Shown here: positions 2,003 through 35,641 of the stretch, piece after piece
Layout: each line of letters opens with the position of its first letter
Numbering within the stretch: the stretch's first letter is position 1
Virus genome (UHGV): UHGV-0194711
Reading direction: 5' to 3' (one strand)
Source: a virus
Length of the DNA stretch: 35,641 bases
The notes under the pieces: generated by a model
What the model saw: only the letters and a program-made list of their open reading frames with translations
What the model was told of the DNA's origin: nothing
Database searches by the model: none
Program-made: the position numbers and the translations under genes

Positions 2003-4522
2003 TCATGAATTAAAAGGAACAACATAATCAAAAGTACACTGGAGAGTGAAATCAAAAGTACCAGCTGCTTGAGAATATATTTCTTGGGCTGACGATTTAA
2101 TAATCGTCATTTGATTTGTCCCAGCAGGAACAAGCGGCATAACTAAAACCCCTGTAGCCGTACTAAGAATTATGCTTCCTTTAGACCCACCCTCCTGTAT
2201 AGAAGCGGCTGTAAAAGGAAGACCACTAATTACTATGGCGCCCGCAGTGCTAACCAGTAAAGAGGTTGATCTGACCCTTATATCGCAACGAACAACATCA
2301 CCAAACCGACGGTAAATTCCAATAATGGATGATGGTATTACGCTTGCGCCGCCAATTGTAATAGTTGGTGCGAATGTGCCATAAAGATACTTAAACTGAG
2401 CAGCATTACCACCGGGAAAAGCTATTGGCGGCATATAGGCATCATTTCGATTAAAAACATACTTATCGGATAAATTTGTTCCGTTTAACTCCTGAAGACC
2501 GAAAAGACGATAGTTTGAATTATCTCCAAGCTTTCTTTGAGCAACTATATTCTCACCGGCACCGATTCTTGTGCCGTTAAATTCATTAACTGGGGCAGCC
2601 TGAACCGCGCCACCTTTTACAATATCAAGGGCGAAAATATTTCCTCTTGTTGCCATCGCTGGAAATGTTGAAAGAGATGGTTCGTAGGGATCAACATTAT
2701 TAACATTAAATCTATTTCCAGCAACATCACCAAGGCCATACTTGATGATTCCTACCCTTTCCAGTATAAGAGTCCTTATTTTACTGTTACCAACATATGA
2801 TTTAAATCCGTCAACGAATTGAGCAGAGTGGTAGAATGGCGTTCTTGGAGACCACAGCACTTTAGCCTCACCAATATTGCAATGCAATATCTCCCTTCCC
2901 GGAAGTGAAATAATAGTTCTTGCGCGCCCAGCTATACCTCTATAGGTATCAACTGGGTAAACCCCATTCTGCTGATTATTTGACAACCGACCACCGCTGG
3001 CCGTAGGCAAGCAGTTTGCAGACTTGAAAACATACGTATCAAACCAAGTGTCAAGAGCGGCATATGCTGGATGTGTCCAGTCCATGCCGGTATCACCATA
3101 ATAATGAAACTTGTCTACATGGTACGAATCATTCCATCCCGCCCGATGAATATCTGATGCCGGGTACGGCGGAAGGTACTGAGACGCGTATGCATGATTT
3201 CTCGTTAGCCAGCGCCCGCCAAAAACAGGGCCTGTAATATTATACCAATATAATGTCAGCCCAGTTTGCGCCAGAGAATCAGATCCTTGATAACAAGCAG
3301 GAATGGCACACCCTGAGTACATCATATTATTTTCTACACAGCGGTTTACAGTCCCGTCTACCCATTGCCCAATAAAGAATCCGCTAATCCTGAAATCAGA
3401 AAGGTGATACTTTATGTATTGATCTGGTCCGCTGTCACCTGCGATGTATAGACCCATGGAAGATGTATGATCCCATGGTCCCGCAGTTTTTGAAAAATTA
3501 CCAATAATCCCACAATTGTGTTGGTTTTCACCAACAATCATTGAATCATCATAAACACGCAGTGCTGCTTTTGCCTTAACTGGTATTTCAGGAGCAATAT
3601 TTGAATCACCGTTCCCTATCCACCCTGGGTATACAGTCCCATCGTCGAATGGCAAATTAAACTCTATCGGTGAAGATATGCACGGATACATTTTAGTTAA
3701 ATATACCGGAAGGTTATTAGCTTTTCCGTAATCTATAGCTGCCTGTAGAAATTTAGTTGCATCAGCAGTGATGCCGTGAATATATCTTTCACCATTAATC
3801 CTTATCATTTCAGGGGTTACGTATTTTATTGCATCTTCAACGGTGCCTCCAGTAAGAACCCCTATATGCCCGCTACCTGTCGGTTTGGCATACTCAATCA
3901 TTACATCTGCTGCACTTCCACTCGAAGGCAATACCATCAATGGATTGCCATTATTATCCATTGCAACGATTTTATTTTTTCGTTCTGCAATGGAAGGTAA
4001 CGGTGTGATGCTAGACTCCGGAACGCGTAGAGTACGAGCTAGATTAATTTTTCCATTTTCAATTACAAATTTTTTAGTAGCTGCATCCTGATCGTTAACT
4101 GGATCGGCCAGATTTGCTATCCGGTAGCCGTTAGCGTTGAAAGGTCCACCGCCGAACAGCGGGCGACTTAGGGCCACTCCGAGATAAATAAACGCGCGCT
4201 GAATAGCCATCCAGAGACGGTCAAAATCTTTGTTAACTGTATCGGCCAGCAGGTCGCCGTTGTCCTGGTAATCAGTGAGCCTGTAAGTCGGCGTTACACG
4301 TTCAAAAATGACTGTAGCGCCATTGGCCGGCGCGGTCAGAAAAGTAACTTCGCCACCGCCAGTATTACCCACACCAGACACTGTATAGCCGGACGTTACT
4401 TCGTTGCCGTTGATTGTGACCTGAATATCGCTGGCGCTGATCAGGTAAAACTCATAGGCAAAGACAGTCGTCAGCCCGTTGGCGGTATAGATGTTATAGG
4501 GTGTCTGGTTCGGTACCGACAT
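2003..4522 (-). CDS. Tailspike / tail fibre protein with T7 gp17-like N-terminal adaptor and divergent low-GC receptor-binding (likely depolymerase) body
   Basis: 839 aa. N-terminal ~150 aa carry the GYRIANLADPVNDQDAATKKFV motif, similar to T7 gp17 (GRRIVNLANAVDDRDAVPFGQL). The remainder is Gly/Asn/Tyr-rich with GC dropping markedly after ~nt 4100. Confidence 0.8.
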   Translation of the reverse strand: MSVPNQTPYNIYTANGLTTVFAYEFYLISASDIQVTINGNEVTSGYTVSGVGNTGGGEVTFLTAPANGATVIFERVTPTYRLTDYQDNGDLLADTVNKDFDRLWMAIQRAFIYLGVALSRPLFGGGPFNANGYRIANLADPVNDQDAATKKFVIENGKINLARTLRVPESSITPLPSIAERKNKIVAMDNNGNPLMVLPSSGSAADVMIEYAKPTGSGHIGVLTGGTVEDAIKYVTPEMIRINGERYIHGITADATKFLQAAIDYGKANNLPVYLTKMYPCISSPIEFNLPFDDGTVYPGWIGNGDSNIAPEIPVKAKAALRVYDDSMIVGENQHNCGIIGNFSKTAGPWDHTSSMGLYIAGDSGPDQYIKYHLSDFRISGFFIGQWVDGTVNRCVENNMMYSGCAIPACYQGSDSLAQTGLTLYWYNITGPVFGGRWLTRNHAYASQYLPPYPASDIHRAGWNDSYHVDKFHYYGDTGMDWTHPAYAALDTWFDTYVFKSANCLPTASGGRLSNNQQNGVYPVDTYRGIAGRARTIISLPGREILHCNIGEAKVLWSPRTPFYHSAQFVDGFKSYVGNSKIRTLILERVGIIKYGLGDVAGNRFNVNNVDPYEPSLSTFPAMATRGNIFALDIVKGGAVQAAPVNEFNGTRIGAGENIVAQRKLGDNSNYRLFGLQELNGTNLSDKYVFNRNDAYMPPIAFPGGNAAQFKYLYGTFAPTITIGGASVIPSSIIGIYRRFGDVVRCDIRVRSTSLLVSTAGAIVISGLPFTAASIQEGGSKGSIILSTATGVLVMPLVPAGTNQMTIIKSSAQEIYSQAAGTFDFTLQCTFDYVVPFNS

Positions 4523-4539: not shown

Positions 4540-6150
4540 CTAGTAATCTACGGCGACCATGTGATCGCCATCATTTGGTTGCCAATGTTCCCGCGCCTGT
4601 GCGGTCGGAATCCCGACCAATTTACCAATGCGCACTGGTGTTGAGCTGATTGCGCCAGAGCCAGAGTCGATAAAGTCATCTGGCTGATTAGTCAGCGCCG
4701 GGTTAAAGTCGCGCATCTGGTCATACATTGGGCCGTCGAGCACGTCGGTATGCGCCCAGAGGAAGCGCGACGACAGCGGCGCTTCGAATGCATCGAGGAT
4801 GCGCTTTTGTTTATTGGTCACGCTGAATTCTTCCCGTACGCCGCAGCCGGTACCCTTTAGTGCCTGAATCAGCAATTTCCCGGCAAAGCTGCCCGGGCCG
4901 TTCACCTCGACGCAGACCAGCGGGATCTGGTATTTAAGCACCAGCTCTTTAATCTGCATCACCTGACCGCCGGTGATTTTGTCGTTGTCGTCGAATTCCG
5001 CCAGTTCGCCCGTAAGCCCCTGGCAAACATGCCAGTACAGATGCCCGCGTGCGTCGGTGAAAATCAGAGAGAACGCCGAGGCGTCGGCCTTAACTTTGCC
5101 GGTGGCCACATCCCACCAGGCAACAGCACCAACAATTTGCGTCTGGCCAAGCCACATCGAGCAGGAGCGGTTCGCGTACCGGATTTCAGGCTGTACGTTG
5201 TATTCGCGTATGCGGTCGGGATCGAGACGAACCTCGCCAACCGGTTTACTGTGCAGCTGGTACTGGCTGTCCCATTCGTTAATTGTGCGAGTCTCGCGAC
5301 GGCGCTTTGTCATTTCCTCCGGAGTGAACCTTTCTGGCCATTCACAATCGGCGTAACAGTCAACCGTGGTGCCGGGAGCCTCGGCAAACTCGATACCGTC
5401 ATCGTTAAGACGATAATCAACACCTTCAACGAGCAGTCGCGCGCCAATGTGAATACCGACGAAAACATATTCCGGCCGGAACGGTAACGAGTAACGGCTC
5501 GCAGTGGCCTGTTTTTCCTCGATTCTAAATTCTTTACCGAATAGTTTGATGGTCAGACAGTCGGCGCCCATAGATTCAACCTCATCGTAAAGGCTATCGT
5601 GGGTATGCGGCGTGCCGATAAACAGCTTTCGCCCGCCGGGGACAAGAATGTGTGTCTGTTCACCGAGACGATAACGCAGCTTTTCCCGCGCCTCTGGCGT
5701 CTGGATATTGCGGGGTACTTCTACGTCATCGTTCTGGCATTCATCAGCGCGGGCCGAGGTAACGTTAGAGAGGATCCCCTTTGCGTACATGCTGCCGTTA
5801 CGCATATCCAGAGAGCCGTTAACCCACCACTGTTCAACGGTTCCCTGTCCGTCCGGTAGCATGCCTTTGGTCAGTGGGTGATTGCGTAAAACGTTCTGCG
5901 TATCGCGGCTGGTTTTGTACGCGGTGCCGTCAGCTTCAGACTGGTGAAGAATGCGGTACTGGCGGTTCTGGTAATATCGCCATGCGTTATACACCGCCAG
6001 AATGGTAGATTTACCAAAGCCACGAAAACAGCGAAGCACCGCGAGATCCCCGCGGTGTTCCAACCAGTGGCAGGCTCGATAATGGCAGTCGGGAACCTCC
6101 CACCCCATCCGCTCCGCCCATATGATGAAAAAGGCGACGAATGAAATCAT
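4540..6150 (-). CDS. Terminase large subunit (T7 gp19-like DNA maturase B)
   Basis: 536 aa. LRCFRGFGKSTILAV Walker-A region aligns with T7 gp19 LQAFRGIGKSFITCAF from memory. Size and position next to terS are consistent. Confidence 0.85.
   Translation of the reverse strand: MISFVAFFIIWAERMGWEVPDCHYRACHWLEHRGDLAVLRCFRGFGKSTILAVYNAWRYYQNRQYRILHQSEADGTAYKTSRDTQNVLRNHPLTKGMLPDGQGTVEQWWVNGSLDMRNGSMYAKGILSNVTSARADECQNDDVEVPRNIQTPEAREKLRYRLGEQTHILVPGGRKLFIGTPHTHDSLYDEVESMGADCLTIKLFGKEFRIEEKQATASRYSLPFRPEYVFVGIHIGARLLVEGVDYRLNDDGIEFAEAPGTTVDCYADCEWPERFTPEEMTKRRRETRTINEWDSQYQLHSKPVGEVRLDPDRIREYNVQPEIRYANRSCSMWLGQTQIVGAVAWWDVATGKVKADASAFSLIFTDARGHLYWHVCQGLTGELAEFDDNDKITGGQVMQIKELVLKYQIPLVCVEVNGPGSFAGKLLIQALKGTGCGVREEFSVTNKQKRILDAFEAPLSSRFLWAHTDVLDGPMYDQMRDFNPALTNQPDDFIDSGSGAISSTPVRIGKLVGIPTAQAREHWQPNDGDHMVAVDY
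4603..4618. promoter_or_regulatory. Copy B of recurring inverted-repeat motif GGTCGGAATCCCGACC, inside the 3' end of terL, ~80 bp upstream of tailspike start
   Basis: Perfect 6 bp stem / 4 nt loop palindrome; same core as copies A, C and D. Confidence 0.5.
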
Positions 6151-6488
6151 TTTTTCCGCTGTTGTATGCGTTCGATAACTTCCTGTGCTGCCCGTTCAGC
6201 CGCAGATACCTGTTGCCCCAGGCGGAATGCTTCATCGTCCGGATCCTCGCCGGGTTTAGGCGTCCCCCCGCGCGTATGCATGCCAATCAGCGAATGGACT
6301 TTTACCAGCAGCGTCAGCGATGCGGCCGCGTTCTTCTTATGCCAGTACCGATCACCGCGTTCCTGTTTAGTGTGCTTTGTGATTTCCTTCCCTGCCCCCG
6401 GCCAGTTATCCGGATCGGCTTCTTCCAGAACTACGTCGGTGAGCTTATCGCTAAGAGCAGTAAGGCGAGTTTTGTAATCTGAATGCAT
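6147..6488 (-). CDS. Candidate terminase small subunit (DNA maturase A)
   Basis: 113 aa charged protein immediately upstream of terL with ATGA stop/start overlap (translational coupling). Positional inference only. Confidence 0.45.
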   Translation of the reverse strand: MHSDYKTRLTALSDKLTDVVLEEADPDNWPGAGKEITKHTKQERGDRYWHKKNAAASLTLLVKVHSLIGMHTRGGTPKPGEDPDDEAFRLGQQVSAAERAAQEVIERIQQRKK

Positions 6489-6535
6489 AAAAAAGCCCCG
6501 TGTTTATCCATAGGGCTATGATGTGTCGGCTTAGA

Positions 6536-6550
6536 GGTCGGAATCCTGAC
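6536..6550. promoter_or_regulatory. Copy C of recurring inverted-repeat motif GGTCGGAATCCTGAC, ~48 bp upstream of candidate terS start
   Basis: Same 15 bp core as copy A, with matching flanks (tagtcaggattccgacct on the transcribed strand). Confidence 0.5.
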
Positions 6551-6641
6551 TATTTCTAATCTAATTATAAAATTGATCGCTGTATGGTTTTTTGTTAAAT
6601 GTTTCTTATACCTAACACTCAGCTAAAGGCGTTTATTTTTC

Positions 6642-18681: not shown

Positions 18682-18901
18682 CGTCGTTTACTCCGTCTGC
18701 TTTGTTGATTTGCATCAGAATGAAATCGAGCACGGAACGCTGTCCGGCCCGGTAACAGGTTTCCCGGTCGCCTTCGGTACCGCCTTTGACATACGCCTCA
18801 CGCCCGAAGCGGCGCGTTAATTCGTCCAGCACCTGCGGCCCGCCGGGCATCTCCTCGAAAATGCGCCGGTAGTCTTCAGGGGTTACGTCTTTTTTGATCA
18901 T
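18668..18901 (-). CDS. Hypothetical small protein between portal and scaffold genes
   Basis: 77 aa ORF with start overlapping the portal stop and end overlapping the scaffold start; protein-like composition. Confidence 0.4.
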   Translation of the reverse strand: MIKKDVTPEDYRRIFEEMPGGPQVLDELTRRFGREAYVKGGTEGDRETCYRAGQRSVLDFILMQINKADGVNDDVEV

Positions 18902-20523
18902 TGGTTGCCCGCCAGTCGTTGTCCCATAATTGCGCCTGCTGCCTGCCCTGCTGCGCCGGCGGCTTCCGTCCCGGCCTGCATCAGCAACTGCTGTTGCGCC
19001 TGCTGCTGTTGCATCTGCTGGCGCTGCTGTCGAAGTTGCTCGACCGCATCAGCGGAACGCATAACTTTTGCCGGAACGCCAAGAGCCTCGCCGACAACCT
19101 TGCTCGCCTCGTCGCTGTCCATGTTGTCCAGTACATCCGGGTACGCCTGCGCCAGCTGCATGATGTTCTGGCCGTATCGCTCGATGGCGGTCACATCTTC
19201 CAGCTTCTGCGCACGGGCCAGCGGGGAGATATAACGCACGTTGAAATTGGCGCTCTGGAGGCTCTCGGGAGCGGGAGGAAAAACGCCAGCGCGGAACGCA
19301 ATACCGAAGCAGCGCTCCACCAGCGGTTGCAGGTATTCAGCCTGGAATCGTCCATAGACCGGGCCAAGCAACTGGCGGATCAGCGCGACACGCACATGCA
19401 CTTCGGTAGCAGTCATTGCCGGGCCGTCCTGCGGTTGCAACTGATCGGCCATCATGATTTTGCGAATGGAAGCCTGCAGGCGCTGTTCAGCGGTAAACGC
19501 CACGTTGAAATCTGCGCCGGTGAGCAAAGGTTTCATGCTTTCGGTGCTGTTCGCCACGATGACGCGGCGCGGGCCAACTTTTACCGTTCGCGGGTTGAGC
19601 ACGCCGTCATCCTCAGCAATCCACATACCGGAGATAGCCAGATCCTGCGCGGCCTTCTCCATGCGTTTGGTTTCGTTCAGCTCTTTGCAGTCCGGCAGCG
19701 CGTCGTATACCGGGCCGATACCGTAGGAGCCGCCGGGAATTTTCATCCAGCGCGGGACGCACACAGGGAATTCGTGATAGCCGGATTCACGCACGATACG
19801 CTTGCCGTTCACTTCCACGTTGAACGATGCAAAACGCATATTGCGCGCCAGCTTCGCATTTACGGCGTAGGTATCACGCGGGAAAATGCAGTGCAGGAAA
19901 TCAAATTTATCGTCAGGTTTGTTTTTTGCAGCATCGCGGATTTTTTCGCTTACCTTGTCCGCGCCGAATTCTTTCACTGCCTGTTCAGCGGTGAGCTGAT
20001 AGCACCGATAAATCGTGTCCACGATGCCATCCCGGCGGGTGGAAGTCACAAAGCATTGCGCCAGCGGCCACTGCTGGAAGGTAAATCCTCCCTCTTCCTT
20101 GTCCTCATCGACGTACAGCGCGAACCAGCCAGCACAGACCACATCGAGATTGGCCTCGTACCCTTCCGCGTCAAAGTTAGCGGCGTGGATATTTTCCCAT
20201 ACCAGCGTTGCACAGGTGGACAACCACGCCTTAGCGTCATCAGGAAGTAATTCGCTGTCGAGGTTCAGCCATTGAGCATTCGCCGGGGTCATCCCTGACA
20301 TAAGCGCGGACGCCAGCATACGGGCGCTGTCGGTGGCTGTGCCGTCCAGCAGCTTCGCAACCTTGTGCTTTGCGCTCTGTGCGTCCAGCACCTCAGACGA
20401 AAACCCGGCCCCGCGCAGCGGATAGGTGTAGTCGTAGCATTCCCGCCAGACGCTTTCGTGCACCTGGCGATTTGCTTTCAGCGTGTCAGCGCGCCTGATT
20501 AACCGGCTGGCGAGTTGATCCAT
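18898..20523 (-). CDS. Portal (head-to-tail connector) protein, T7 gp8-like
   Basis: 541 aa (T7 gp8 is 536 aa); Gln-rich C-terminal tail (QQRQQMQQQQAQQQ) as in T7 portal; precedes scaffold and capsid. Confidence 0.8.
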   Translation of the reverse strand: MDQLASRLIRRADTLKANRQVHESVWRECYDYTYPLRGAGFSSEVLDAQSAKHKVAKLLDGTATDSARMLASALMSGMTPANAQWLNLDSELLPDDAKAWLSTCATLVWENIHAANFDAEGYEANLDVVCAGWFALYVDEDKEEGGFTFQQWPLAQCFVTSTRRDGIVDTIYRCYQLTAEQAVKEFGADKVSEKIRDAAKNKPDDKFDFLHCIFPRDTYAVNAKLARNMRFASFNVEVNGKRIVRESGYHEFPVCVPRWMKIPGGSYGIGPVYDALPDCKELNETKRMEKAAQDLAISGMWIAEDDGVLNPRTVKVGPRRVIVANSTESMKPLLTGADFNVAFTAEQRLQASIRKIMMADQLQPQDGPAMTATEVHVRVALIRQLLGPVYGRFQAEYLQPLVERCFGIAFRAGVFPPAPESLQSANFNVRYISPLARAQKLEDVTAIERYGQNIMQLAQAYPDVLDNMDSDEASKVVGEALGVPAKVMRSADAVEQLRQQRQQMQQQQAQQQLLMQAGTEAAGAAGQAAGAIMGQRLAGNQ

Positions 20524-21678: not shown

Positions 21679-22080
21679 TTAAATTCTGCATAGACGTAAT
21701 TCCTTTATCTCGTTAGTGACCTGTTCGAGCAATTCAGTCTCCGTGCCGTAGTTTTCTTCCCATGTTTTTTGCCCTGCGTGGATAGCTACGCCGTGTCCGC
21801 CGGTTCTGTGGTGTGGCGGGCAAAGCGGGAGAGTTTCTTTGTGGTCGGCGCGCTGGGCTATGCCCTGACCGGTTCGGATGTGATGGATTTCGGGGGCGGA
21901 GTACACGCCGAAGTGTACTTTGCAGACAATACAACCTATCTCAACGAGATCTTGGAAATATTGCTTATCTGATTTACTGGCGCGCTTTTTCACAAAGCAC
22001 CCCCTTGCTGGCTGCAAACTCCCCGTAATACAAATCTTCTGCTTTCCGGCGGGCATTGATAGCATCGGCAATTTCATCAA
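21679..22080 (-). CDS. Ref-like / HNH-motif nuclease (recombination enhancement function family), start uncertain
   Basis: CIVCKVHFGVYSAPEIHHIRTGQGIAQRADHKETLPLCPPHHRTGGHGVAIHAG His/Cys metal-finger pattern. The 5' end overlaps the AP2-HNH gene by ~100 nt if the first ATG is used; GTG at 21993 with GGGGG RBS is an alternative. Confidence 0.5.
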   Translation of the reverse strand: MMKLPMLSMPAGKQKICITGSLQPARGCFVKKRASKSDKQYFQDLVEIGCIVCKVHFGVYSAPEIHHIRTGQGIAQRADHKETLPLCPPHHRTGGHGVAIHAGQKTWEENYGTETELLEQVTNEIKELRLCRI

Positions 22081-22450
22081 AGCGGCCTAAACTAACGGTC
22101 CTGCCATCAACTGAAATTTGCGCCGCCCATTTTAGGCGAGTGGATACCCAGTAAATTCCCGGAATTCCTGAGCTATTGTCACTCCTCAAGCCCACATTTT
22201 TGGTATTGTCGGCCTGTGTGCAGATCCTCAGATTTGAGCGGGTGCAGTTGAGCTTATTACCATCAATGTGATCTACAACATCATGAGGCCCCGCATTCAT
22301 GATGACGCGATGAAGGTATCTTTCCTTGCCAAAATGCCAGCCGGTGACTTTTGCATAACCATTCGAGCCGATGTGGATGGGGTAACCCACAAAGATCAAG
22401 GCGTCGGCCTCATCCATCTCGACGATATGAGAGCGAATATTGAATTTCAT
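21974..22450 (-). CDS. HNH homing endonuclease with AP2 DNA-binding domain
   Basis: Start taken at MKFNIRS (GAGG RBS). HIDGNKLNCTRSNLRICTQADN HNH motif followed by an AP2-like segment (GIPGIYWVSTRLKWAAQISVDGRTVSLGRFDEIADAINARRKAEDLYYGEF). Confidence 0.75.
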   Translation of the reverse strand: MKFNIRSHIVEMDEADALIFVGYPIHIGSNGYAKVTGWHFGKERYLHRVIMNAGPHDVVDHIDGNKLNCTRSNLRICTQADNTKNVGLRSDNSSGIPGIYWVSTRLKWAAQISVDGRTVSLGRFDEIADAINARRKAEDLYYGEFAASKGVLCEKARQ

Positions 22451-22460
22451 AGTGTCCGCC

Positions 22461-23057
22461 TCAGGCCGCATAACTGAAAAGCTGAGAGGCTGCGTTTTCT
22501 GCTGCCTGCTGATTAGGGAAGGTGCGGAATAAAATAAAATTCCAGAGGACGTCTAATACGGATTTGTACAGCTGGGAAAATTCTACATCGTCCATTTTTG
22601 CGAACGATATGGATTTGGGTTCCTTGCGGGTGGTGCCATCAGGCATCTGGTATTCGGTATAAAAACCGGCCTCGATAGTTACCCAGGAACGGAAAGCTTC
22701 AAACGATTTAACCGCGCTGATATTGCCGGCGCGTTTTTCTGCCTCATCGCGCAGATACTGATCCGCCAGTTCCTGCAATGTGTCGCCATGCCCGGCATAG
22801 TGGGCCACCAGCTGCACGTAACCCCGAACCAGTTTTTTATCGGCTGGCGATATTGCACCGCCGGAAGGTTGCCAGTAATCAAATCCCAGATTCAGGAGGG
22901 CAAAAAATTTACGGTGAAATGCCGAGTTCCTTGCCTGTTTAAAATCCGCATACAGAATACCGCCCATGCGGACTTTTTTTTCTAAGAATTCGCGGGCGTC
23001 AGGCGTTGCCGGAATTAATACACCGCCGGGTGCTTTTACAAAAGAATACTGCGCCAT
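22461..23057 (-). CDS. DUF1367-family phage protein
   Basis: N-terminus MAQYSFVKAPGGVLIPATPDAREFL typical of DUF1367 proteins in enterobacterial lambdoid prophages (recalled, not searched). Confidence 0.5.
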   Translation of the reverse strand: MAQYSFVKAPGGVLIPATPDAREFLEKKVRMGGILYADFKQARNSAFHRKFFALLNLGFDYWQPSGGAISPADKKLVRGYVQLVAHYAGHGDTLQELADQYLRDEAEKRAGNISAVKSFEAFRSWVTIEAGFYTEYQMPDGTTRKEPKSISFAKMDDVEFSQLYKSVLDVLWNFILFRTFPNQQAAENAASQLFSYAA

Positions 23058-23125
23058 TGGGTTCCCCTTTAGCGCAGCAATTGTTCAGAATTACATGGTG
23101 TTGGGTGTTCAGGCCAACGGGGTAA

Positions 23126-23317
23126 TTATAGCATATTGCCGTCTGGTTTGATAATGGTATAACCCGTCAATTTAGCTAATTCAAACAACGCGTTAAGTGT
23201 CGCTACGTGCTCATCGGAATGGACAATTCTGGTCTTCTTAATCTTCCCATTTTCACACGTTATCAGTACATCACCATCGTCGGGGAGAAGGTCTCCTGCG
23301 TCTTTCTTATCAACCAC
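23126..23317 (-). CDS. Small protein downstream of a LexA box (candidate SOS-controlled antirepressor); start uncertain
   Basis: Track ORF is 23126-23386, but its first 23 codons run through the LexA box and promoter. In-frame GTG at 23317 preceded by GAGGGAGAGG gives a 63-aa product. Confidence 0.4.
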   Translation of the reverse strand: MVDKKDAGDLLPDDGDVLITCENGKIKKTRIVHSDEHVATLNALFELAKLTGYTIIKPDGNML

Positions 23318-23337
23318 TACCTCTCCCTCAACAACAA

Positions 23338-23357
23338 TACTGTATAAAATTACAGTA
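23338..23357. promoter_or_regulatory. LexA (SOS) box: TACTGTATAAAATTACAGTA
   Basis: CTG-N10-CAG with AT-rich spacer, 18/20 match to the E. coli consensus taCTGTatatatataCAGta; lies just downstream of a candidate -10 (TATATA) on the minus strand. Confidence 0.7.
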
Positions 23358-23445
23358 TATATACTACCAACTGACAGTGAGCGCAAATTTTTAAGAGCAC
23401 GAATCGTTAAAAATCAACAATAAATCTCAAAATATCCGATTGAAT

Positions 23446-23480
23446 TCAAAAGAAAACCGCCATTTCTGACGGTTCTGTTT
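23446..23480 (-). terminator. Candidate rho-independent terminator ending the early-right operon
   Basis: Transcribed strand CCGTCA-GAAA-TGGCGG hairpin (one G-U pair) followed by TTTTCTTTTG, just after the 112-aa gene. Confidence 0.4.
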
Positions 23481-23499
23481 TAACTGGTATGGTTGTTCG

Positions 23500-23838
23500 C
23501 TATGCTGACAGTTTGGTTTCGTGCCACCCTCGCGTTACCCAGCATTGCGAATCACCAGCACACGGGCAGGAGGTGATCGGCAGCGTCTCACCGCATTTTC
23601 TACACAGACGTTTGCTGATCGATTTGATGTGGCCACTAAGCCGCGCATCATCCTGACGGATCAGCATAGCGATGTACTCGGCCAGTTCGTACGGTTCACG
23701 CCCCGGACGCCGGGCGGCGCAGTTATGCGCCAGCATGTCCAGTTCCTGCGTATCGAGAACCAGCTCAATTTTGCGGTTGCCGGCGGCAGATTGCCGCGCC
23801 CTCTGCGCGGCTTTACGTTCTGCGGATGATTTAGCCAT
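23500..23838 (-). CDS. Hypothetical protein with C-terminal Cys cluster (possible zinc-finger regulator)
   Basis: 112 aa; CRKCGETLPITSCPCAGDSQC cluster; last gene of the early-right operon. Confidence 0.5.
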   Translation of the reverse strand: MAKSSAERKAAQRARQSAAGNRKIELVLDTQELDMLAHNCAARRPGREPYELAEYIAMLIRQDDARLSGHIKSISKRLCRKCGETLPITSCPCAGDSQCWVTRGWHETKLSA

Positions 23839-23850
23839 TAACCACCTCAG

Positions 23851-24468
23851 TTAGCTGGATAATCGTTTAATTGCATGGCGGAGCATAACTTGTGCATACA
23901 GCGCCGGAGCAAGAACCTGCGGCATTTTTGAGTAGCCCGCCCCAGAGAACAGGCGGCGTATTTCTTTAGGTGCCGCGCGTAGATTATTGATATTGTTGTT
24001 ATTCAAATCATTATCCAGATGGATAACCGAATAACCAGACGGTAATTTTCCATGTACGCATTCATATACGTATACATCGAGTCTAATTTTCTCTTTATTA
24101 ACAGTGATGTACTGTGGAAGAATGCGTTTCCGGCCTTTAGGTTCGCGTGTCCATCCGCGAGCTATCTTTACATCCTTGATATTGTCAGGTTTTTTATCGG
24201 TACCGAATCTCCTGTTGAACCTTTCTGTAAGTTCAGCATTCGTTAGATTCCTATTGGCATAAATGAAAGTCAGCTGCTCATCGGAATAGCGCGGCTCAAT
24301 TAAAAACTGCTTTCCTAACCCATGAGATTTGCACCAGATACGAATAGCGCCCACGCTCTTATTTGTACCAAATTTAGCGTTAAACATTTCAGTTAATTCC
24401 CGCGCAGTGGAGCTTTTAATATGCTGCTTGATAAACAACTCCTGGGCTGGAGTGTATTTCTCTATCAT
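23851..24468 (-). CDS. HNH homing endonuclease (AT-rich insertion)
   Basis: YECVHGKLPSGYSVIHLDNDLNNNNINNL HNH motif; N-terminal basic DNA-binding-like repeats; markedly AT-rich gene. Confidence 0.7.
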   Translation of the reverse strand: MIEKYTPAQELFIKQHIKSSTARELTEMFNAKFGTNKSVGAIRIWCKSHGLGKQFLIEPRYSDEQLTFIYANRNLTNAELTERFNRRFGTDKKPDNIKDVKIARGWTREPKGRKRILPQYITVNKEKIRLDVYVYECVHGKLPSGYSVIHLDNDLNNNNINNLRAAPKEIRRLFSGAGYSKMPQVLAPALYAQVMLRHAIKRLSS

Positions 24469-24695
24469 TTTTCGATCCCCATAATCTTAGGTACATTGCC
24501 TGCGGTACCGTCATAAATAGCCTTCTGGGCGTCGAGCGCAACTCGATAAGTACCGACCATCACCCCGACGATTTCCACTACCGCTTTAGCCCTCGATAAC
24601 TCTTCCTGAAGCAGGTCGCCTTTGATATTGGGATCGGTGACGGTTTCCAGCATGGCGAACTGGTGATTCATTAAATCCTGAATAGTGTTTTTCAT
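24465..24695 (-). CDS. Hypothetical small protein
   Basis: 76 aa ORF with overlapping stop/start to both neighbours. Confidence 0.45.
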   Translation of the reverse strand: MKNTIQDLMNHQFAMLETVTDPNIKGDLLQEELSRAKAVVEIVGVMVGTYRVALDAQKAIYDGTAGNVPKIMGIEK

Positions 24696-24697
24696 GG

Positions 24698-25288
24698 TTA
24701 GGCTACCTCCCCGATATATTCTGCAATGCCCGGCAGCAGCGCCACCGCTGGCGACTCACACTGATTGCCCCACACGTCGAAACCATGCGACGACTGGCGG
24801 GCGAATAACTCAATACGCGGCACATCGCCCAGCAGCTGCACCAGCTTTTCGCGCACGATATCCGGTTTGCGCGAATGCTCCAGACGCGGGGCCGTGAATG
24901 ACTGAACGATCCCTGCATCCATCCGGGCGGGTAATTTCCCCTGCACAGCGAAAAGGCAATCCTCGCTGTTCGCCCTGGTCAAATGGCCCATTCCAAGGGC
25001 CAGTTTGTCGGTCTGCCGGCTGTAGCATTTGTTCCACGTAAAGCCTTTCATGGTCATCAGACGGAAGCCCCACGCCTCGACTACTCGCAACGCCTCCAGC
25101 GGCTGAGTCGGTACCCACCACATAGCCAGCAGGCAGTTTTCAGCGGCCAGTTCCCAGACCGGGAGACGGCAGATATCGAGCACAGTCATGGTCTGGTATT
25201 TGTGCCCGGCGCCGCGTTCCCCGTCTTTGGCTTTGTCGCGGTAAGTCCATGGAGGATCCGCATAAATCAGGGTGTATTTGTTATTCAC
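24698..25288 (-). CDS. MT-A70-family DNA N6-adenine methyltransferase (orphan, no cognate restriction gene seen)
   Basis: IYADPPW catalytic motif near the N-terminus; 196 aa. Confidence 0.8.
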   Translation of the reverse strand: MNNKYTLIYADPPWTYRDKAKDGERGAGHKYQTMTVLDICRLPVWELAAENCLLAMWWVPTQPLEALRVVEAWGFRLMTMKGFTWNKCYSRQTDKLALGMGHLTRANSEDCLFAVQGKLPARMDAGIVQSFTAPRLEHSRKPDIVREKLVQLLGDVPRIELFARQSSHGFDVWGNQCESPAVALLPGIAEYIGEVA

Positions 25289-25455
25289 GCAAGCACCCCA
25301 CTACTGCGGAGACATTCCAGCGCCCACTGTGCAACCTCACATCCAGCCCATATCAGAGCGATAATGACTATCCAGCCAACAACGTTTGCACTGAGTACGA
25401 ACAGCATCAGCGTCCTGCGGCTGCAATGCATAAAATCAGGTGTTGAAAATTTCAT
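25285..25455 (-). CDS. Small membrane protein
   Basis: Start taken at MKFSTPDFMH; single TM helix (LMLFVLSANVVGWIVIIALIWAG); 56 aa. Track ORF 25285-25632 is extended upstream in a frame that overlaps the next gene. Confidence 0.4.
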   Translation of the reverse strand: MKFSTPDFMHCSRRTLMLFVLSANVVGWIVIIALIWAGCEVAQWALECLRSSGVLA

Positions 25456-25685
25456 GTCCGCTTCTCCCGCCAAAAATTTAATCGTTCTTTGAAAAACTCC
25501 CGGTAGCTTTCCGGCGTCGCTGCAATCTGCTCTACGATGGCCTGTCGAGTAACTTTTTTCTCGAACAGCTGGCGTATGAGTGCCGCGGCCCGCATGTCGT
25601 AGTGCTCTTTGATCTGGCACTCCTGCGGCCATTTGGCGCGATTAAGCGGTAAGCCGGGCGGCAAGTAATCTGATTGCCCGGCCAT
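25452..25685 (-). CDS. Hypothetical protein
   Basis: 77 aa ORF in the operon frame; no motif recognised. Confidence 0.45.
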   Translation of the reverse strand: MAGQSDYLPPGLPLNRAKWPQECQIKEHYDMRAAALIRQLFEKKVTRQAIVEQIAATPESYREFFKERLNFWREKRT

Positions 25686-26395: not shown

Positions 26396-27784
26396 TTAAA
26401 ATGCATCGGTATTGAATTTCTCTGAGTATTTACGGGGTTGTTTCCGGGGTTTCGCGGCCTCCAGTTGGATACGTGTTTTCTCTTTGCCAACATGCTGATC
26501 CATTGACAGAAAGTGTCCGTTTTTAAATTCCTGATAAATAATTGCGCCTGCGGCGCTGAAGCGGCTTTTACCCAGGATAATTTCAGCGACGCCAGCCGCC
26601 GGGCTTTCCGGGTTGTAAACCTCATCGCGGTACAGAAACATGATGCTGTCGGCGTCCTGCTCAATGGAACCGGAATCGCGCAGGTCTGACATGACCGGGC
26701 GGCGCTGGGCCGCCGGGCGGGAATCCACGGCGCGGGAAAGCTGGCTAAGCGCGAACGTCGGCGTATGCAGGCGCATAGCCATAGTTTTTAAGTTTCGGGA
26801 TATGTGGGCGATCGCGAGGTCGTTACGCTCTGCCTTCGGTTTTTTAATCAGGCCAAGGTAATCGACAACGATCATCGCCAGATGCGGATACCGGCGCTTA
26901 TGCGTTTCGGCAACGGCGCGGATTTGCTCAATCGTCAGATCGGTAGCATCAACGATCCAGATATCGCGCCCGTTCATGGTCTCCATGGCCGCTGTAAAGC
27001 GCGCCCAGTCCTCGTCCTGCATATCGAGGGGATTACGCAGGCGTGACACTGACATGTTGCCAGAACCCGCTAGAGCGCGTTCTACGATTTGCGCAGCGGC
27101 CATTTCCATGCTGAATATCAACGCGCCACCGCCAGCAGCGGTAACACCATCGACAATCTTCAGCGCAAATTCTGTTTTTCCCATGCCCGGACGCCCAGCG
27201 ACGACAATCAAATCCTGCAGGTTGATTCCGCCGGTCGCATCGTCAAGTTCCTCGATCCCGGTTTTCAGGTTGCGAGTACCCTCTTCGCCGTCCATGCGCT
27301 TCTGCATGGTTTCCATGTACACCGGCAATAATTCGCTCATGTGTACCGGCTGCACGTCGCCAGTGTCGCCGGTCATGTCCAGCAGCTGCGCCACGGCAGT
27401 TTCGACAATCTCATCGCGCTGCTCCTGATTATTCGCCTGGCGGATACCATCAGCACCATTTTGCAGTAATTCAGCCATACGGCGGCTGCGCCACGCCTTC
27501 ACCATTTTCCCGGCGTAACCTTTCAGGTTTGGTACCGTGGCGGGCATACGCGAAATCTCTGATAAATCAGCCAGGCTACTCCCTCCCAGAGCCTCACTGA
27601 CAAACAGCATATCGATCAGACCGTTCGTCAACGCCTGTTTTTTGATTTCCGAGAAGGCGCGACGATGAAAAACAATGCTGAATGATTCTTCAGGCGTCGA
27701 TGCGATCACGTCGAAAGCGTCCGGACTTGCTCCACCGTTCAGCAGTCCAGCCAGTACACAAGATTCCAGTTCCTGCGGAGTCAT
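26396..27784 (-). CDS. DnaB-type replicative helicase (P22 gp12-like)
   Basis: GRPGMGKTEFALKIV Walker A; Walker B-like MIVVDYLGL; 462 aa; follows replication initiator with overlapping stop/start. Confidence 0.85.
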   Translation of the reverse strand: MTPQELESCVLAGLLNGGASPDAFDVIASTPEESFSIVFHRRAFSEIKKQALTNGLIDMLFVSEALGGSSLADLSEISRMPATVPNLKGYAGKMVKAWRSRRMAELLQNGADGIRQANNQEQRDEIVETAVAQLLDMTGDTGDVQPVHMSELLPVYMETMQKRMDGEEGTRNLKTGIEELDDATGGINLQDLIVVAGRPGMGKTEFALKIVDGVTAAGGGALIFSMEMAAAQIVERALAGSGNMSVSRLRNPLDMQDEDWARFTAAMETMNGRDIWIVDATDLTIEQIRAVAETHKRRYPHLAMIVVDYLGLIKKPKAERNDLAIAHISRNLKTMAMRLHTPTFALSQLSRAVDSRPAAQRRPVMSDLRDSGSIEQDADSIMFLYRDEVYNPESPAAGVAEIILGKSRFSAAGAIIYQEFKNGHFLSMDQHVGKEKTRIQLEAAKPRKQPRKYSEKFNTDAF

Positions 27785-28773
27785 AGCGATCCCTCACGAG
27801 TTTTACGCAATGTTTCAGGCTTCATCAGGTAGTCAAAGCTGGCGCGCCATCCGCCATTTTCACCAAAGTAAAAATCGGAGGCGTCAGCGCGGAATTTTTC
27901 GAAATAGCCCAGAAATGCGCCCGTGGTTTTGTTTTTCATATGGGCGGCCAGACGGGTGATCATCCGGCGGCGGTCTGTGTCCAATTCAGCAGCGGGCAGA
28001 ACATCAGCAAAAATTTCGTTGTAGCCGTTCATAACGGCTTCCGGATCAATATCGGTTTCGGTCACCGCCCATGCTTCAGCGTCAGCGAGATAACCATCAA
28101 AGCGGTTTACCCGGCAGATGTTCGCTGGCTTCGGCAGGCTATCGCCACGGCGGCGCCATGTGGCCAGCACCCAGCGGATAACTAACTGCAATTCGTCCAG
28201 TGTGTACCCTTCCCGGGTGGTGGTCGGCGTCAGCATCATCACAAACGGTTTCAGGTCACGGCAGCGGGTACCGGTTTGCTCGTTGTAAAATTCCAGCGCT
28301 TTTTGTGCATCAGAAAGAATTAACTCAACGCCTTCCTCCTCTAAGGGGTTAGGGGTATATATATTCTCTGTAGTATTCTCTGTAAGAAAGTTTGCTGGTT
28401 TTCCCCTGACTTGTTTGGTGGTTTTCCGCATTCCAGTATGTGGTTTTTCCGCATTCTTGTTTGCAGCTGCAAGCACCTGATATAAAACGTTATTATCTAC
28501 TTTGTAGAAAAGTCGCGCAGGAACGCCTTTTCTTTTTTCCAGTAGTACACCAATTGAGCGGAGTTTCTTACGCGCCCCCTCCTGCTCATAGCGGGAAAGG
28601 CCGGTTTCTTCTTCCCATTCTTCCTGAGTTTTATACACCCATCCGTCATCGTCGGACCGGTTAGTCCAGTAGGTCATTTGTGATAGAAACAGCGCAGCCG
28701 TCACACCAATATCCAGACGAATAAAACTGCGCTGGAAGGCGATCGGCCTGTCGAGTAATGGCAAAATATTCAT
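27781..28773 (-). CDS. Replication initiation protein (lambda O / P22 gp18-like replisome organiser)
   Basis: 330 aa; position immediately upstream of the DnaB-like helicase; N-terminal DNA-binding-like region. Confidence 0.6.
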   Translation of the reverse strand: MNILPLLDRPIAFQRSFIRLDIGVTAALFLSQMTYWTNRSDDDGWVYKTQEEWEEETGLSRYEQEGARKKLRSIGVLLEKRKGVPARLFYKVDNNVLYQVLAAANKNAEKPHTGMRKTTKQVRGKPANFLTENTTENIYTPNPLEEEGVELILSDAQKALEFYNEQTGTRCRDLKPFVMMLTPTTTREGYTLDELQLVIRWVLATWRRRGDSLPKPANICRVNRFDGYLADAEAWAVTETDIDPEAVMNGYNEIFADVLPAAELDTDRRRMITRLAAHMKNKTTGAFLGYFEKFRADASDFYFGENGGWRASFDYLMKPETLRKTREGSL

Positions 28774-34187: not shown

Positions 34188-34433
34188 ATGAGACACGATC
34201 ACGACATCATCACCAGAGAGGAAATGATCGAACTGACGGGGACCCCACTTAAATCGAGGCAGTGTGAAGCGCTACGTCGGGCCGGTGTCTTTTTCATGGA
34301 AAGGGCAGACGGCCATCCTAAAACGACGTGGGGCCATTTCCTGAACCCGATTAAATACCGCAACCAGCAGGAAGAGACGGTGCGGGAGGAAGAACCAGAC
34401 TTCGGAGCTATCTTTAATGGCCGGAAAACGTAA
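34188..34433 (+). CDS. DUF4224-family protein (excisionase-like, upstream of integrase)
   Basis: ITREEMIELTGTPLKSRQCEALRRAGVFF matches the DUF4224 pattern typically found next to integrases; TIR GAGGAAAGACCATG variant. Confidence 0.55.
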   Translation: MRHDHDIITREEMIELTGTPLKSRQCEALRRAGVFFMERADGHPKTTWGHFLNPIKYRNQQEETVREEEPDFGAIFNGRKT

Positions 34434-35433
34434 GAACCCCGCTGATAACTGGATGCCGCCCCGCGTGTATCGCGGTAAGGCGGCGTATGAATTCAGGAAT
34501 AAAGATAACAAGGCTATCAGGCTATGTGCGCTCTCCGAGCCTCAATCAGCTGTATGGCTGGCATATGAAAAAGCCATGGGAGAAGAAGTCGAGCGCAAGA
34601 CGTTTCAGGCTCTGGCCGATCAATTCATGTCTTCCCCTGACTGGCAGGATTTAGCGGCAGAAACCCGCAAAGACTACACGAAATACGCAGGCAAAGTGTT
34701 GCCGGTGTTCGGGAAGGTTAACCCCGATAAAATTAAACCGGAACACATCCGGCGCTATATGGATCAGCGTGGCATGGCCAGTAAAACGCAGGCCAACCGG
34801 GAAAAGAGTTTTCTTTCTCGGGTATTCCGCTGGGGTTATGAGCGGGGTTACGTCCAGCATAATCCCTGTCAGGGCGTTAAGAAGTTCAAAGAGGCAGCCC
34901 GGGAGCGTTACATCACCGACGAAGAATACAAAGCGGTTTACGATGTTGCTCCAGACGTAGTTCGCGCCACCATGGAAATCGCTTATTTGTGTCTGGCCAG
35001 ACAAAGCGATGTGCTGGCTTTGACTGAAGACCAGATACGCGAAACCGGGATCTTTATCCGCCAGGGGAAAACAGGCGTGAAGCAAATCAAAGCATGGTCG
35101 CCACGCCTGCGCGCCGCTGTCGCCCTCGCCCGTTCCCTGCCGTTAAAGCCGGGTATCCGTAGCCTGTTTGTCATTCACCAGACCAGCGGCAGCAAATACA
35201 CCCGTGACGGTTTTAATTCACGCTGGCGCGACGCGAAAATCGCAGCGCAGGAAAAGAACCCACACCTGCAGATAGATTTCACTTTCCACGATCTGAAAGC
35301 GAAAGGTGTCTCTGATCTGGAAGGAAGCCTCGAGGAGAAACAGGCGATTTCAGGCCATAAGAATTCGAGACAAACGGCGATTTACGACAGGAAAACTAAA
35401 ATTGTGCCGGTTGTTGGTGGTCAGAAAAAATGA
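34417..35433 (+). CDS. int: Tyrosine recombinase / phage integrase
   Basis: 338 aa; C-terminal catalytic region HDLKAKG...GHKNSRQTAIYDR (H-x-x-R and Tyr); adjacent to tRNA att site. Confidence 0.9.
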   Translation: MAGKRKNPADNWMPPRVYRGKAAYEFRNKDNKAIRLCALSEPQSAVWLAYEKAMGEEVERKTFQALADQFMSSPDWQDLAAETRKDYTKYAGKVLPVFGKVNPDKIKPEHIRRYMDQRGMASKTQANREKSFLSRVFRWGYERGYVQHNPCQGVKKFKEAARERYITDEEYKAVYDVAPDVVRATMEIAYLCLARQSDVLALTEDQIRETGIFIRQGKTGVKQIKAWSPRLRAAVALARSLPLKPGIRSLFVIHQTSGSKYTRDGFNSRWRDAKIAAQEKNPHLQIDFTFHDLKAKGVSDLEGSLEEKQAISGHKNSRQTAIYDRKTKIVPVVGGQKK

Positions 35434-35490: not shown

Positions 35491-35619
35491 CAGATACAAA
35501 AAAACCACCCGTAGGTGGTTTCACGACACTGCTTATTGCTTTGATTATTCTGCTTTATCCCAATGGTACCCGGAGCGGGACTTGAACCCGCACAGCGCGA
35601 ACGCCGAGGGATTTTAAAT
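35491..35619. repeat. Right attachment-site direct repeat (attR), including terminator hairpin and tRNA-Leu 3' half
   Basis: Near-identical to 156-283; preceded by tandem CATCTTCGGA repeats (35459-35480) that may be integrase arm sites. Confidence 0.85.
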
Positions 35620-35641
35620 CCCTTGTGTCTACCGATTCCAC
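35564..35641 (-). tRNA. leuZ: tRNA-Leu (anticodon UAA), truncated by the window edge (5' ~9 nt outside)
   Basis: Reverse complement reads ...GTGGAATCGGTAGACACAAGGGATTTAAAATCCCTCGGCGTTCGCGCTGTGCGGGTTCAAGTCCCGCTCCGGGTACCA; anticodon loop tTTAAaa gives UAA; matches enterobacterial leuZ from memory. Confidence 0.85.

Follow-up and report, generated by a model that had tools for sequence, protein, structure and literature searches.

The viral genome UHGV-0194711, a stretch of 35,641 nucleotides (nt) referred to here in its entirety as the window, is an integrated prophage of Klebsiella pneumoniae. Between its replication genes and its portal and late genes lies a nin-like accessory segment, which corresponds to the nin region of lambda and contains a NinB/DUF1367 gene. 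This segment encodes two proteins with HNH domains, AP2-HNH and HNH205, and an MT-A70 adenine methyltransferase, all on the minus strand (Table 1). The AP2-HNH gene separates the NinB gene from ref, which encodes a nuclease of the Ref family, and the HNH205 gene follows directly on the gene for a small helical protein, p76, which itself follows the methyltransferase gene. A first-pass annotation had read both HNH genes as selfish insertions and the methyltransferase as an orphan with an anti-restriction or epigenetic role. That observation is largely right, and it holds for AP2-HNH and for the orphan status of the methyltransferase. With moderate confidence, we interpret the region as three kinds of element: a homing AP2-HNH gene, a module formed by p76 and HNH205, and an orphan MT-A70 methyltransferase with a probable role in DNA protection.

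An optional AP2-HNH gene between NinB and ref

The AP2-HNH protein scores above the Pfam cut-off for HNH_3 (PF13392; E=2e-7, 31 bits, cut-off 24.8) and matches phrog_99 (E=7e-42). When it is aligned to I-HmuI (PDB 1U3E), VVDHIDGNKLNCTRSNLRICTQADN of AP2-HNH falls opposite VVDHKDGNKDNNLSTNLRWVTQKIN of 1U3E, and AP2-HNH retains the Asp-His pair as well as both the structural Asn and the helix Asn; we take the corresponding catalytic residues of I-HmuI to be D74/H75, N87, and N96. A PDB sequence search with the whole protein returned only a weak match to I-HmuI (E=0.08), a PDB search with the AP2-like tail returned no match, and PADLOC and NCBIfam gave weak "homing endonuclease" matches only. Close relatives of AP2-HNH carry both PF00847 (AP2) and PF13392, and most homologues, including those at 72-85% identity, have precomputed PF00847 matches.

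The window proteins were mapped onto 91 loci anchored on NinB, consisting of 11 genome representatives and 80 loci from IMG/VR (numbered with the prefix L). Both NinB and Ref are present in 65 of the 91, and 76 loci span the interval from a theta-like gene to NinB and were used for the counts of MT-A70, p76, HNH205, and p112. Some contigs were fetched twice (L096=L082, L098=L084, L099=L078). Among the 65 NinB-Ref junctions, 61 are empty (15-28 nt), three contain AP2-HNH (L078, L082, and L084), and one contains an IS5-family element (L036). In empty alleles the Ref ATG lies about 14 nt past the NinB stop codon, and in alleles with the gene (HNH+) the AP2-HNH ATG occupies that position, as seen when TGAGGTCACCACCATGAC in the empty locus L066 is compared with TGAGGTCACCACTATGAAATTC in L084. 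Given the many empty junctions, the few occupied ones, and this fixed junction, AP2-HNH is optional and site-specific. Universal conservation of the endonuclease genes, the observation that the first-pass annotation had set against its own insertion reading, is thus not what the relatives display, and the gene behaves as the proposed selfish insertion: it is optional and mobile, has a constant junction, and lies in a sharp mosaic patch. The 1.1-kb insert of L036 was considered as a second endonuclease and rejected, since it encodes an IS5-family transposase (322 amino acids [aa]; L036 positions 5664-6632) that sits in the same junction used by AP2-HNH.

A mosaic patch around AP2-HNH

In a sliding comparison, the window from about position 22500 to about position 21865 is 98-100% identical to L078 and L082, compared to 66-92% in the flanks, a difference that supports a relatively recent, putative transfer of the AP2-HNH patch. 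Those flanks instead match the HNH-less loci L014, L017, L019, L016, L039, and L023 at 92-100% identity. Informative sites in NinB favor the HNH-linked type over the HNH-less type by 12:0 inside the patch and by 2:57 outside it (Fisher p=7e-12), and those in Ref by 65:2 inside and 1:104 outside (Fisher p=7e-44). The breakpoints fall at 22512-22485 and 21868-21861. Because the second of these lies inside ref, the Ref protein is a chimera, with its first ~43 residues (VKKRASKSDKQYFQDLVEIGCIVCKVHFGVYSAPEIHHIRTGQG) of the HNH-linked type and the remainder of the same type as in HNH-less L014 and L017. The chimera junction is at codon ~44 in the window, L097, L078, and L082 and at codon ~58 in L084, and L078 and L082 carry the same HNH-linked N terminus on a different recipient Ref type, that of L066. 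Since both the junctions and the recipient types differ, more than one exchange event is indicated.

A Citrobacter cronae prophage, Klebsiella sp. Ap-873, and three more contigs contain more distant relatives of AP2-HNH (70-85% identity). Their neighbors vary and include a NACHT-like ATPase, antiterminator Q, RusA, or a C5 methylase together with an MT-A70 gene. In all five contexts, AP2-HNH lies directly upstream of a Ref gene with the HNH-linked N terminus. Across all fetched loci, the Ref N terminus has the form MTKDDK...LGCVVCRNLG in 65/65 HNH-less cases and VKKR...IGCIVCK in 18/18 HNH+ cases; these 18 include duplicates and near-identical prophages and amount to about eight distinct cases.

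The Ref protein of the window scores 51.9 bits against PF16786 (cut-off 26.9), and an identical 104-aa protein in RefSeq (WP_227639748.1) is named as a Ref family member. Like phage P1 Ref, it exceeds the PF16786 cut-off and has the CxxC...HH...CPxHH pattern; unlike P1 Ref, it is much shorter, and the 5' end of its gene houses the AP2-HNH insertion. The first-pass annotation had placed this gene at 21679-22080, giving a 107-nt overlap with AP2-HNH that was taken as a hint of recent insertion. Those coordinates describe the longest mechanical open reading frame (ORF), which has a TTG start, and are an artefact: homology to Ref proteins begins at V30, and the GTG at 21993 is preceded by AAGGGGG and starts the same 104-aa protein that is found in RefSeq and in public gene calls. 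With Ref starting at that GTG and the AP2-HNH stop codon at 21974-21976, the overlap is 20 nt. This overlap and a Ref Shine-Dalgarno sequence within the AP2-HNH gene are kept in every HNH+ locus, including relatives at 70% identity, and an overlap that is so conserved is not evidence of recency.

The p76-HNH205 module

HNH205 also scores above the HNH_3 cut-off (38.3 bits vs. 24.8, profile positions 6-42 of 46) and matches phrog_1891 (E=2e-41). Its gene is AT-rich, as had been stated in the first-pass annotation, with a GC content of 0.42 compared to 0.52 for the window. Homology between the window and L018, L082, and L031 ends at 24699-24706 and restarts at 23838-23840, the edges of a cassette that contains the p76 and HNH205 genes. 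Both genes occur in 21 of the 76 loci and always as a pair (21/21). In 37/37 IMG/VR loci found by p76 alone, with p76 identity down to 47%, an HNH205-family gene directly follows. The pair also occurs in L112-L115, in another lambdoid backbone, and in contigs of Salmonella that carry PolA and SNF2. Neither the 37 loci nor L112-L115 include a p76 gene that lacks an HNH205-family gene, and no locus joins the methylase directly to p112 as an empty site would. p76 is the better conserved partner in several loci, at 84% identity compared to 44-45% for HNH205 in L147/L148, 96% compared to 69% in L143, and 79% compared to 54% in L149/L150. The two genes form a conserved, translationally coupled module that moves as a unit between unrelated phage backbones.

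The canonical metal ligands of HNH_3 domains, namely the Asp before the His and the helix Asn or His, are absent from HNH205. In its motif, SVIHLDND...NLRAAPKEIRR, the residue preceding the His is Ile instead of Asp, and Arg stands where the Asn would be. The family alignment retains His150, and the helix after "NL" (residues 168-176, PKEIRRLFS) has no conserved Asn, His, Asp, or Glu. A total of 988 relatives were found among 1.84 billion representatives; they differ in the number of an N-terminal repeat of about 50 residues, and in many of them the His is replaced by Phe. The AlphaFold2 model (predicted local distance difference test [pLDDT] 83) contains two three-helix repeats and a beta-beta-alpha unit. 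Searched with Foldseek against the PDB, it matched nothing at E<=0.001; its best, non-significant matches were the bipartite helix-turn-helix domains of SETMAR, Pax5, and Tc3 and, weakly, I-HmuI and I-PpoI. A PDB sequence search with HNH205 gave no match.

HNH205 occurs in two allele classes, with 94-100% vs. 68-70% aa identity to the window protein (L022, L039, L076, L119, L123, L124, and L128). In most of these loci, p76 and p112 are near-identical to those of the window, suggesting exchange confined to the HNH205 ORF.

An orphan MT-A70 methyltransferase

The methyltransferase matches PF05063 over the entire profile (83.6 bits vs. a cut-off of 23.9, positions 1-172 of 172), with DPPW at residues 11-14, and also matches phrog_359 (E=6e-113) and the PADLOC profile MTase_II (E=7e-78). 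Among solved structures, the ciliate MTA1 complex and METTL3 are the closest to it. The claim that it has no adjacent restriction gene is borne out: its neighbors are a 56-aa membrane ORF upstream and p76 downstream, and PADLOC matches the methylase only. The locus lacks the adjacent, co-inherited endonuclease gene that defines a type II restriction-modification system.

MT-A70 is present in 40 of the 76 loci. It sits in a variable slot that is rich in methyltransferase genes: in relatives, the slot contains two kinds of C5 methyltransferase (PF00145), a D12 Dam-type enzyme (PF02086), an N6_N4 enzyme (PF01555), or a ParB-HTH protein; other cargo consists of an AAA ATPase with RloB or of IS110 with DUF2971. 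Variable contents between the methylase or theta-like gene and NinB, including AT-rich inserts with a GC content of 0.32-0.36, were seen in L001 (2170-3929), L002 (4949-7433), L025 (2700-4700), and L085 (3110-4620). This slot may be a hotspot for defense or accessory genes. In L111 (3260-4959), a C5 methylase and a 214-aa MT-A70 gene come after an HNH-Ref pair, so that this phage group has MT-A70 genes at more than one position.

By tblastn, the window enzyme is 77-78% identical at the aa level, over residues 1-192, to the enzyme of phages that carry Shiga toxin 2a (Stx2a), such as phiON-2011 of Escherichia coli O104:H4. We take ORF07 of phiON-2011 to be M.EcoGV, also called M.EcoPA8orf6770P. 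M.EcoGV is listed as GATC-specific (PMC6602927; PMC10810198). The Stx-phage MT-A70 protein is reported to be weak on DNA and, together with the product of the upstream gene, PNB-2, to methylate 16S rRNA; shorter MT-A70 variants occur without PNB-2 in bacteria other than Shiga toxin-producing E. coli (non-STEC) (PMC10810198). The function of the methylase is therefore less open than the first-pass annotation assumed, as a relative this close has already been studied. The two enzymes share the DPPW motif and an orphan, prophage-borne status. They differ in that the window gene lies in the nin-like region and the Stx-phage gene is integrase-proximal, and in that the window protein ends 12 residues before the C terminus of the Stx version and has no PNB-2 partner gene. 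Tblastn searches of the window and all loci with phiON-2011 ORF08 (PNB-2), antA, ORF06, and the TL-2011b neighbors gave no match. GATC occurs 139 times in the 35.6 kb of the window, a count that is uninformative because it is near the 1-in-256 expectation.

Genomic context of the region

Table 1. Coordinates of the genes and features discussed in the text (window positions)
Feature	Position	Strand	Description
Portal	18898-20523		
Ref-family gene	21679-21993	-	104 aa; RecA-dependent nuclease, DUF968-like; GTG start; PF16786 E=9e-14
Putative gene-conversion patch	about 21865-22500	-	~635 bp; last ~40 nt of NinB, spacer, AP2-HNH, first ~43 codons of Ref
AP2-HNH gene	21974-22450	-	158 aa; free-standing endonuclease gene; ATG at 22450 after GAGG Shine-Dalgarno; same 158-aa public gene call
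NinB/Orf-like DUF1367 gene	22461-23057	-	PF07105 E=1e-83; upstream flank of the AP2-HNH insertion
p112	23500-23838	-	phrog_536 ("transcriptional regulator") E=2e-50; in 51/76 loci; downstream boundary of the variable cassette
p76+HNH205 cassette	23839-24697	-	fits exactly between the MT-A70 stop and the p112 start
HNH205	23851-24468	-	205 aa; HNH_3-domain protein, HNH_3 E=1e-9; two N-terminal three-helix repeats and beta-beta-alpha
p76	24465-24695	-	76 aa; helical protein; phrog_2044 E=7e-25; overlaps the HNH205 start by 4 nt
MT-A70 methyltransferase	24698-25288	-	196 aa; beta-class (DPPW) N6-adenine methyltransferase; GTG start; PF05063 E=2e-23
56-aa ORF	25285-25455	-	predicted membrane protein; between theta-like gene and methylase; also called in public assemblies
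DnaB	26396-27784		
RepO	27781-28773		
Tyrosine integrase	34417-35433	+	beside the tRNA
tRNA	35567-35641	-	5'-truncated by the window end; adjoins integrase

The tRNA next to the integrase, which is the sole match in an Rfam scan of the window, is probably the attachment site of the prophage. The integrase is followed by an exonuclease, the immunity region, RepO, and DnaB, and the minus strand holds every gene from about 29 kb down to the tail-spike. An exact-sequence look-up found AP2-HNH, HNH205, p76, MT-A70, and Ref (5/5) to be identical to public proteins of K. pneumoniae or close relatives, which are named "HNH endonuclease," "MT-A70 family methyltransferase," and "Ref family recombination enhancement nuclease," with p76 a "hypothetical protein." Public gene calls on identical prophages share our coordinates for AP2-HNH, HNH205, and MT-A70. 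In the assembly collection, 199 indexed blocks contain the AP2-HNH sequence, and the gene order is constant wherever it was read. A megablast search against complete E. coli genomes and GenBank phages returned two partial relatives only. Two phages recorded from Stenotrophomonas, BUCT709 (L001, OM816835) and BUCT708 (OM816834), have about 85% nt identity to the window across the replication and NinB genes, and their recorded host looks doubtful.

The gene order is unusual for a lambdoid-looking prophage. The large terminase gene (4540-6150) is located at the distal end of the late operon, adjacent to the tail-spike gene (2003-4522) and about 13 kb from the portal gene, and in relatives the portal gene is followed by a Bbp19-family gene. 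A packaging role as a terminase-associated nuclease was considered for AP2-HNH and HNH205 and rejected, as the terminase gene is far off and both genes are optional in relatives. Upstream of the methylase, a gene for a theta-like protein (a homologue of the DNA polymerase III theta subunit; 25452-25685, minus strand) is conserved in nearly all relatives; it matches phrog_1105 (E=4e-29) and, below the cut-off, PF06440 (E=2e-4). The 56-aa membrane ORF is coupled to the theta-like gene and to the methylase gene through ATGA and GTGA overlaps. Consensus matching alone gave a terminator-like hairpin after p112 (23476-23453, minus strand) and a promoter-like site just before NinB (TTATCA-18-TATAAT with an upstream TG; 23154-23125, minus strand), and the segment may thus not be a single transcript.

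Discussion

A free-standing homing endonuclease gene that co-converts its flanks would be expected to leave a footprint like the AP2-HNH patch. We propose that AP2-HNH is an I-HmuI-type gene of this class, with an AP2-like DNA-binding tail, placed exactly at the Ref start codon. In a mixed infection or a prophage cross, its product would cut or nick alleles that lack the gene, at a site within or close to the 5' end of ref. Repair off the HNH+ genome would copy the AP2-HNH gene along with the recoded, presumably resistant 5' end of ref, leaving a patch of about 635 bp, and Ref would then be translated from the new GTG by means of the Shine-Dalgarno sequence inside the AP2-HNH 3' end. From this arrangement we infer cleavage, homing, and a target located within the 5' part of HNH-less ref.

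Intronless homing with co-conversion of flanking markers is established for the seg and mob genes of T-even phages. AP2-HNH resembles I-HmuI-type and intronless homing genes in its HNH_3 domain with the Asp-His pair and both Asn residues, in being an optional intergenic gene at a fixed site beside a conserved gene, and in the high-identity patch that extends into both flanks. Its C-terminal DNA-binding part is AP2-like, in contrast to the helix-turn-helix tail of I-HmuI. HNH-AP2 endonucleases reportedly occur in phages and cyanobacteria, for example in phages of Xanthomonas oryzae, and close relatives of AP2-HNH have this same PF13392 and PF00847 architecture. Compared to homing in T-even phages and ICP1, the present case involves a temperate Klebsiella prophage, a Ref-family nuclease neighbor with its first ~43 codons replaced, and a cleavage that is predicted from sequence. 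A study of ICP1 reports a tendency of phage nuclease genes to occupy boundaries of genetic exchange (PMC10448857), and the AP2-HNH patch agrees with what is reported there.

Several points weigh against the three-element interpretation. The AP2 match of the window protein itself (PF00847; E=1.2e-3, 19.6 bits) lies below the Pfam cut-off of 33.3. Our set of loci was anchored on NinB, is rich in closely related prophages, and includes duplicate contigs, so that its counts give too high a number of independent events. The same footprint as that of homing could result if two old Ref lineages, one of which happened to carry AP2-HNH, underwent homologous recombination. The general-base His is retained in HNH205, and since some His-Me nucleases require few protein ligands, nuclease activity is possible. 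For the methyltransferase, we equate ORF07 with M.EcoGV on the basis of strain and position, and the weak activity of the Stx-phage orthologue on DNA, together with its preference for 16S rRNA in the presence of PNB-2, suggests that DNA may not be the main substrate of the family.

If the patch arose by ordinary homologous recombination of anciently diverged ref alleles, AP2-HNH would be a passive or domesticated passenger, perhaps a partner of Ref. The HNH-Ref pair is kept down to 70% identity on several backbones, its 20-nt overlap and internal Shine-Dalgarno sequence are those of an operon-style pair, and mosaic boundaries in phages often fall at gene junctions without any nuclease. However, the absence of AP2-HNH from 61 of 65 junctions indicates that Ref does not need it; the patch is short, centered on the AP2-HNH gene, and far closer to distant phages than its flanks are; at least two junction positions are found, on two recipient Ref types; and the catalytic residues are intact. 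We consider such recombination an unlikely explanation and favor homing. An analogous role for HNH205, as an active free-standing homing endonuclease with p76 as its home or target gene, as Ref is for AP2-HNH, is rather doubtful, and the first-pass reading of this gene as a selfish homing insertion is not supported. Its HNH_3 score, the retention of His150 in the close clade, the low GC content, the restriction of the gene to 21 of 76 related loci, and allele classes that suggest local exchange between near-identical p76 and p112 genes would all be in keeping with homing. Yet the constant pairing, down to 47% identity of p76, leaves no population of targets lacking the endonuclease gene, and no empty site was found among the loci. 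In addition, both metal ligands are replaced (Asp by Ile, Asn by Arg), the helix has no conserved acidic residue, His, or Asn, the His itself is Phe in many relatives, and the structural model has no significant nuclease match in Foldseek. Given the lost ligands, the constant pairing, and the helix-turn-helix-like best structural matches, we read HNH205 as an HNH-derived DNA-binding partner of p76; it is most likely a sequence-specific DNA-binding protein with tandem helix-turn-helix repeats and an HNH-derived domain without metal ligands. A wider proposal, that p76 and HNH205-family proteins constitute an undescribed two-protein accessory module that hops among temperate phages and phage-plasmids of Klebsiella, Salmonella, and relatives and acts by sequence-specific DNA binding (for example in exclusion, anti-defense, or regulation) and not by homing cleavage, is possible but tentative.

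The methyltransferase could instead be mainly an RNA enzyme that methylates 16S rRNA and tunes prophage induction, as reported for the Stx-phage orthologue with PNB-2 (PMC10810198). The high identity to that orthologue makes this conceivable, but the window and the fetched loci contain no PNB-2 homologue detectable by tblastn, the window protein is missing the final 12 residues found in the Stx version, shorter non-STEC variants likewise occur without PNB-2, the slot is filled by DNA methyltransferases in relatives, and M.EcoGV is listed as GATC-specific (PMC6602927). We regard an RNA role as distinctly unlikely. The same features, namely the missing PNB-2, the shorter C terminus, and the GATC listing, favor N6-adenine methylation of DNA: the enzyme most likely methylates phage and host DNA, protecting phage DNA from restriction, and its target is probably GATC. 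That it instead forms a restriction-modification-like system with p76 and HNH205, the HNH protein acting as the nuclease, is very improbable indeed. In 28 of 37 p76-anchored loci, the three genes adjoin one another in the same orientation, and restriction enzymes of the HNH type do exist. However, MT-A70 occurs without p76 and HNH205 in 20 of 40 methylase-bearing loci, and p76 and HNH205 occur without a methylase in L004, L112-L115, and L143-L150, where a lone restriction enzyme would be lethal; the HNH205 active site is degenerate, and no partner gene is recognized by PADLOC. Because each occurs independently of the other, HNH205 is rejected as the restriction partner of MT-A70.

Every element in this region is of a known kind and already has an annotation in publicly available Klebsiella genomes, and the region leaves the current understanding of phage biology unchanged. 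What our analysis adds is that the conversion patch has been documented and that p76 and HNH205 have been recognized as a module. Through its Stx-phage relative, the methyltransferase can be assigned a concrete predicted target: GATC or, given a partner, rRNA. With GATC as the target, a methylome comparison in a Dam+ host would reveal no additional motif even with an active enzyme. A Dam+ Klebsiella lysogen would then have no strain-specific motif, and the absence of such a motif, which the first-pass annotation had proposed as evidence against a role for the methylase, would mislead. Within 2 kb, databases use the name "HNH endonuclease" for two very dissimilar things, a homing enzyme that is likely active and a probably inactive domain in a two-gene module. 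AP2-HNH provides a clean sequence-level case of a free-standing HNH gene that appears to be spreading in temperate Klebsiella prophages and carrying a recoded ref 5' end with it. Together, AP2-HNH and ref would offer a ready system for the study of homing and co-conversion outside the lytic T-even and ICP1 phages.

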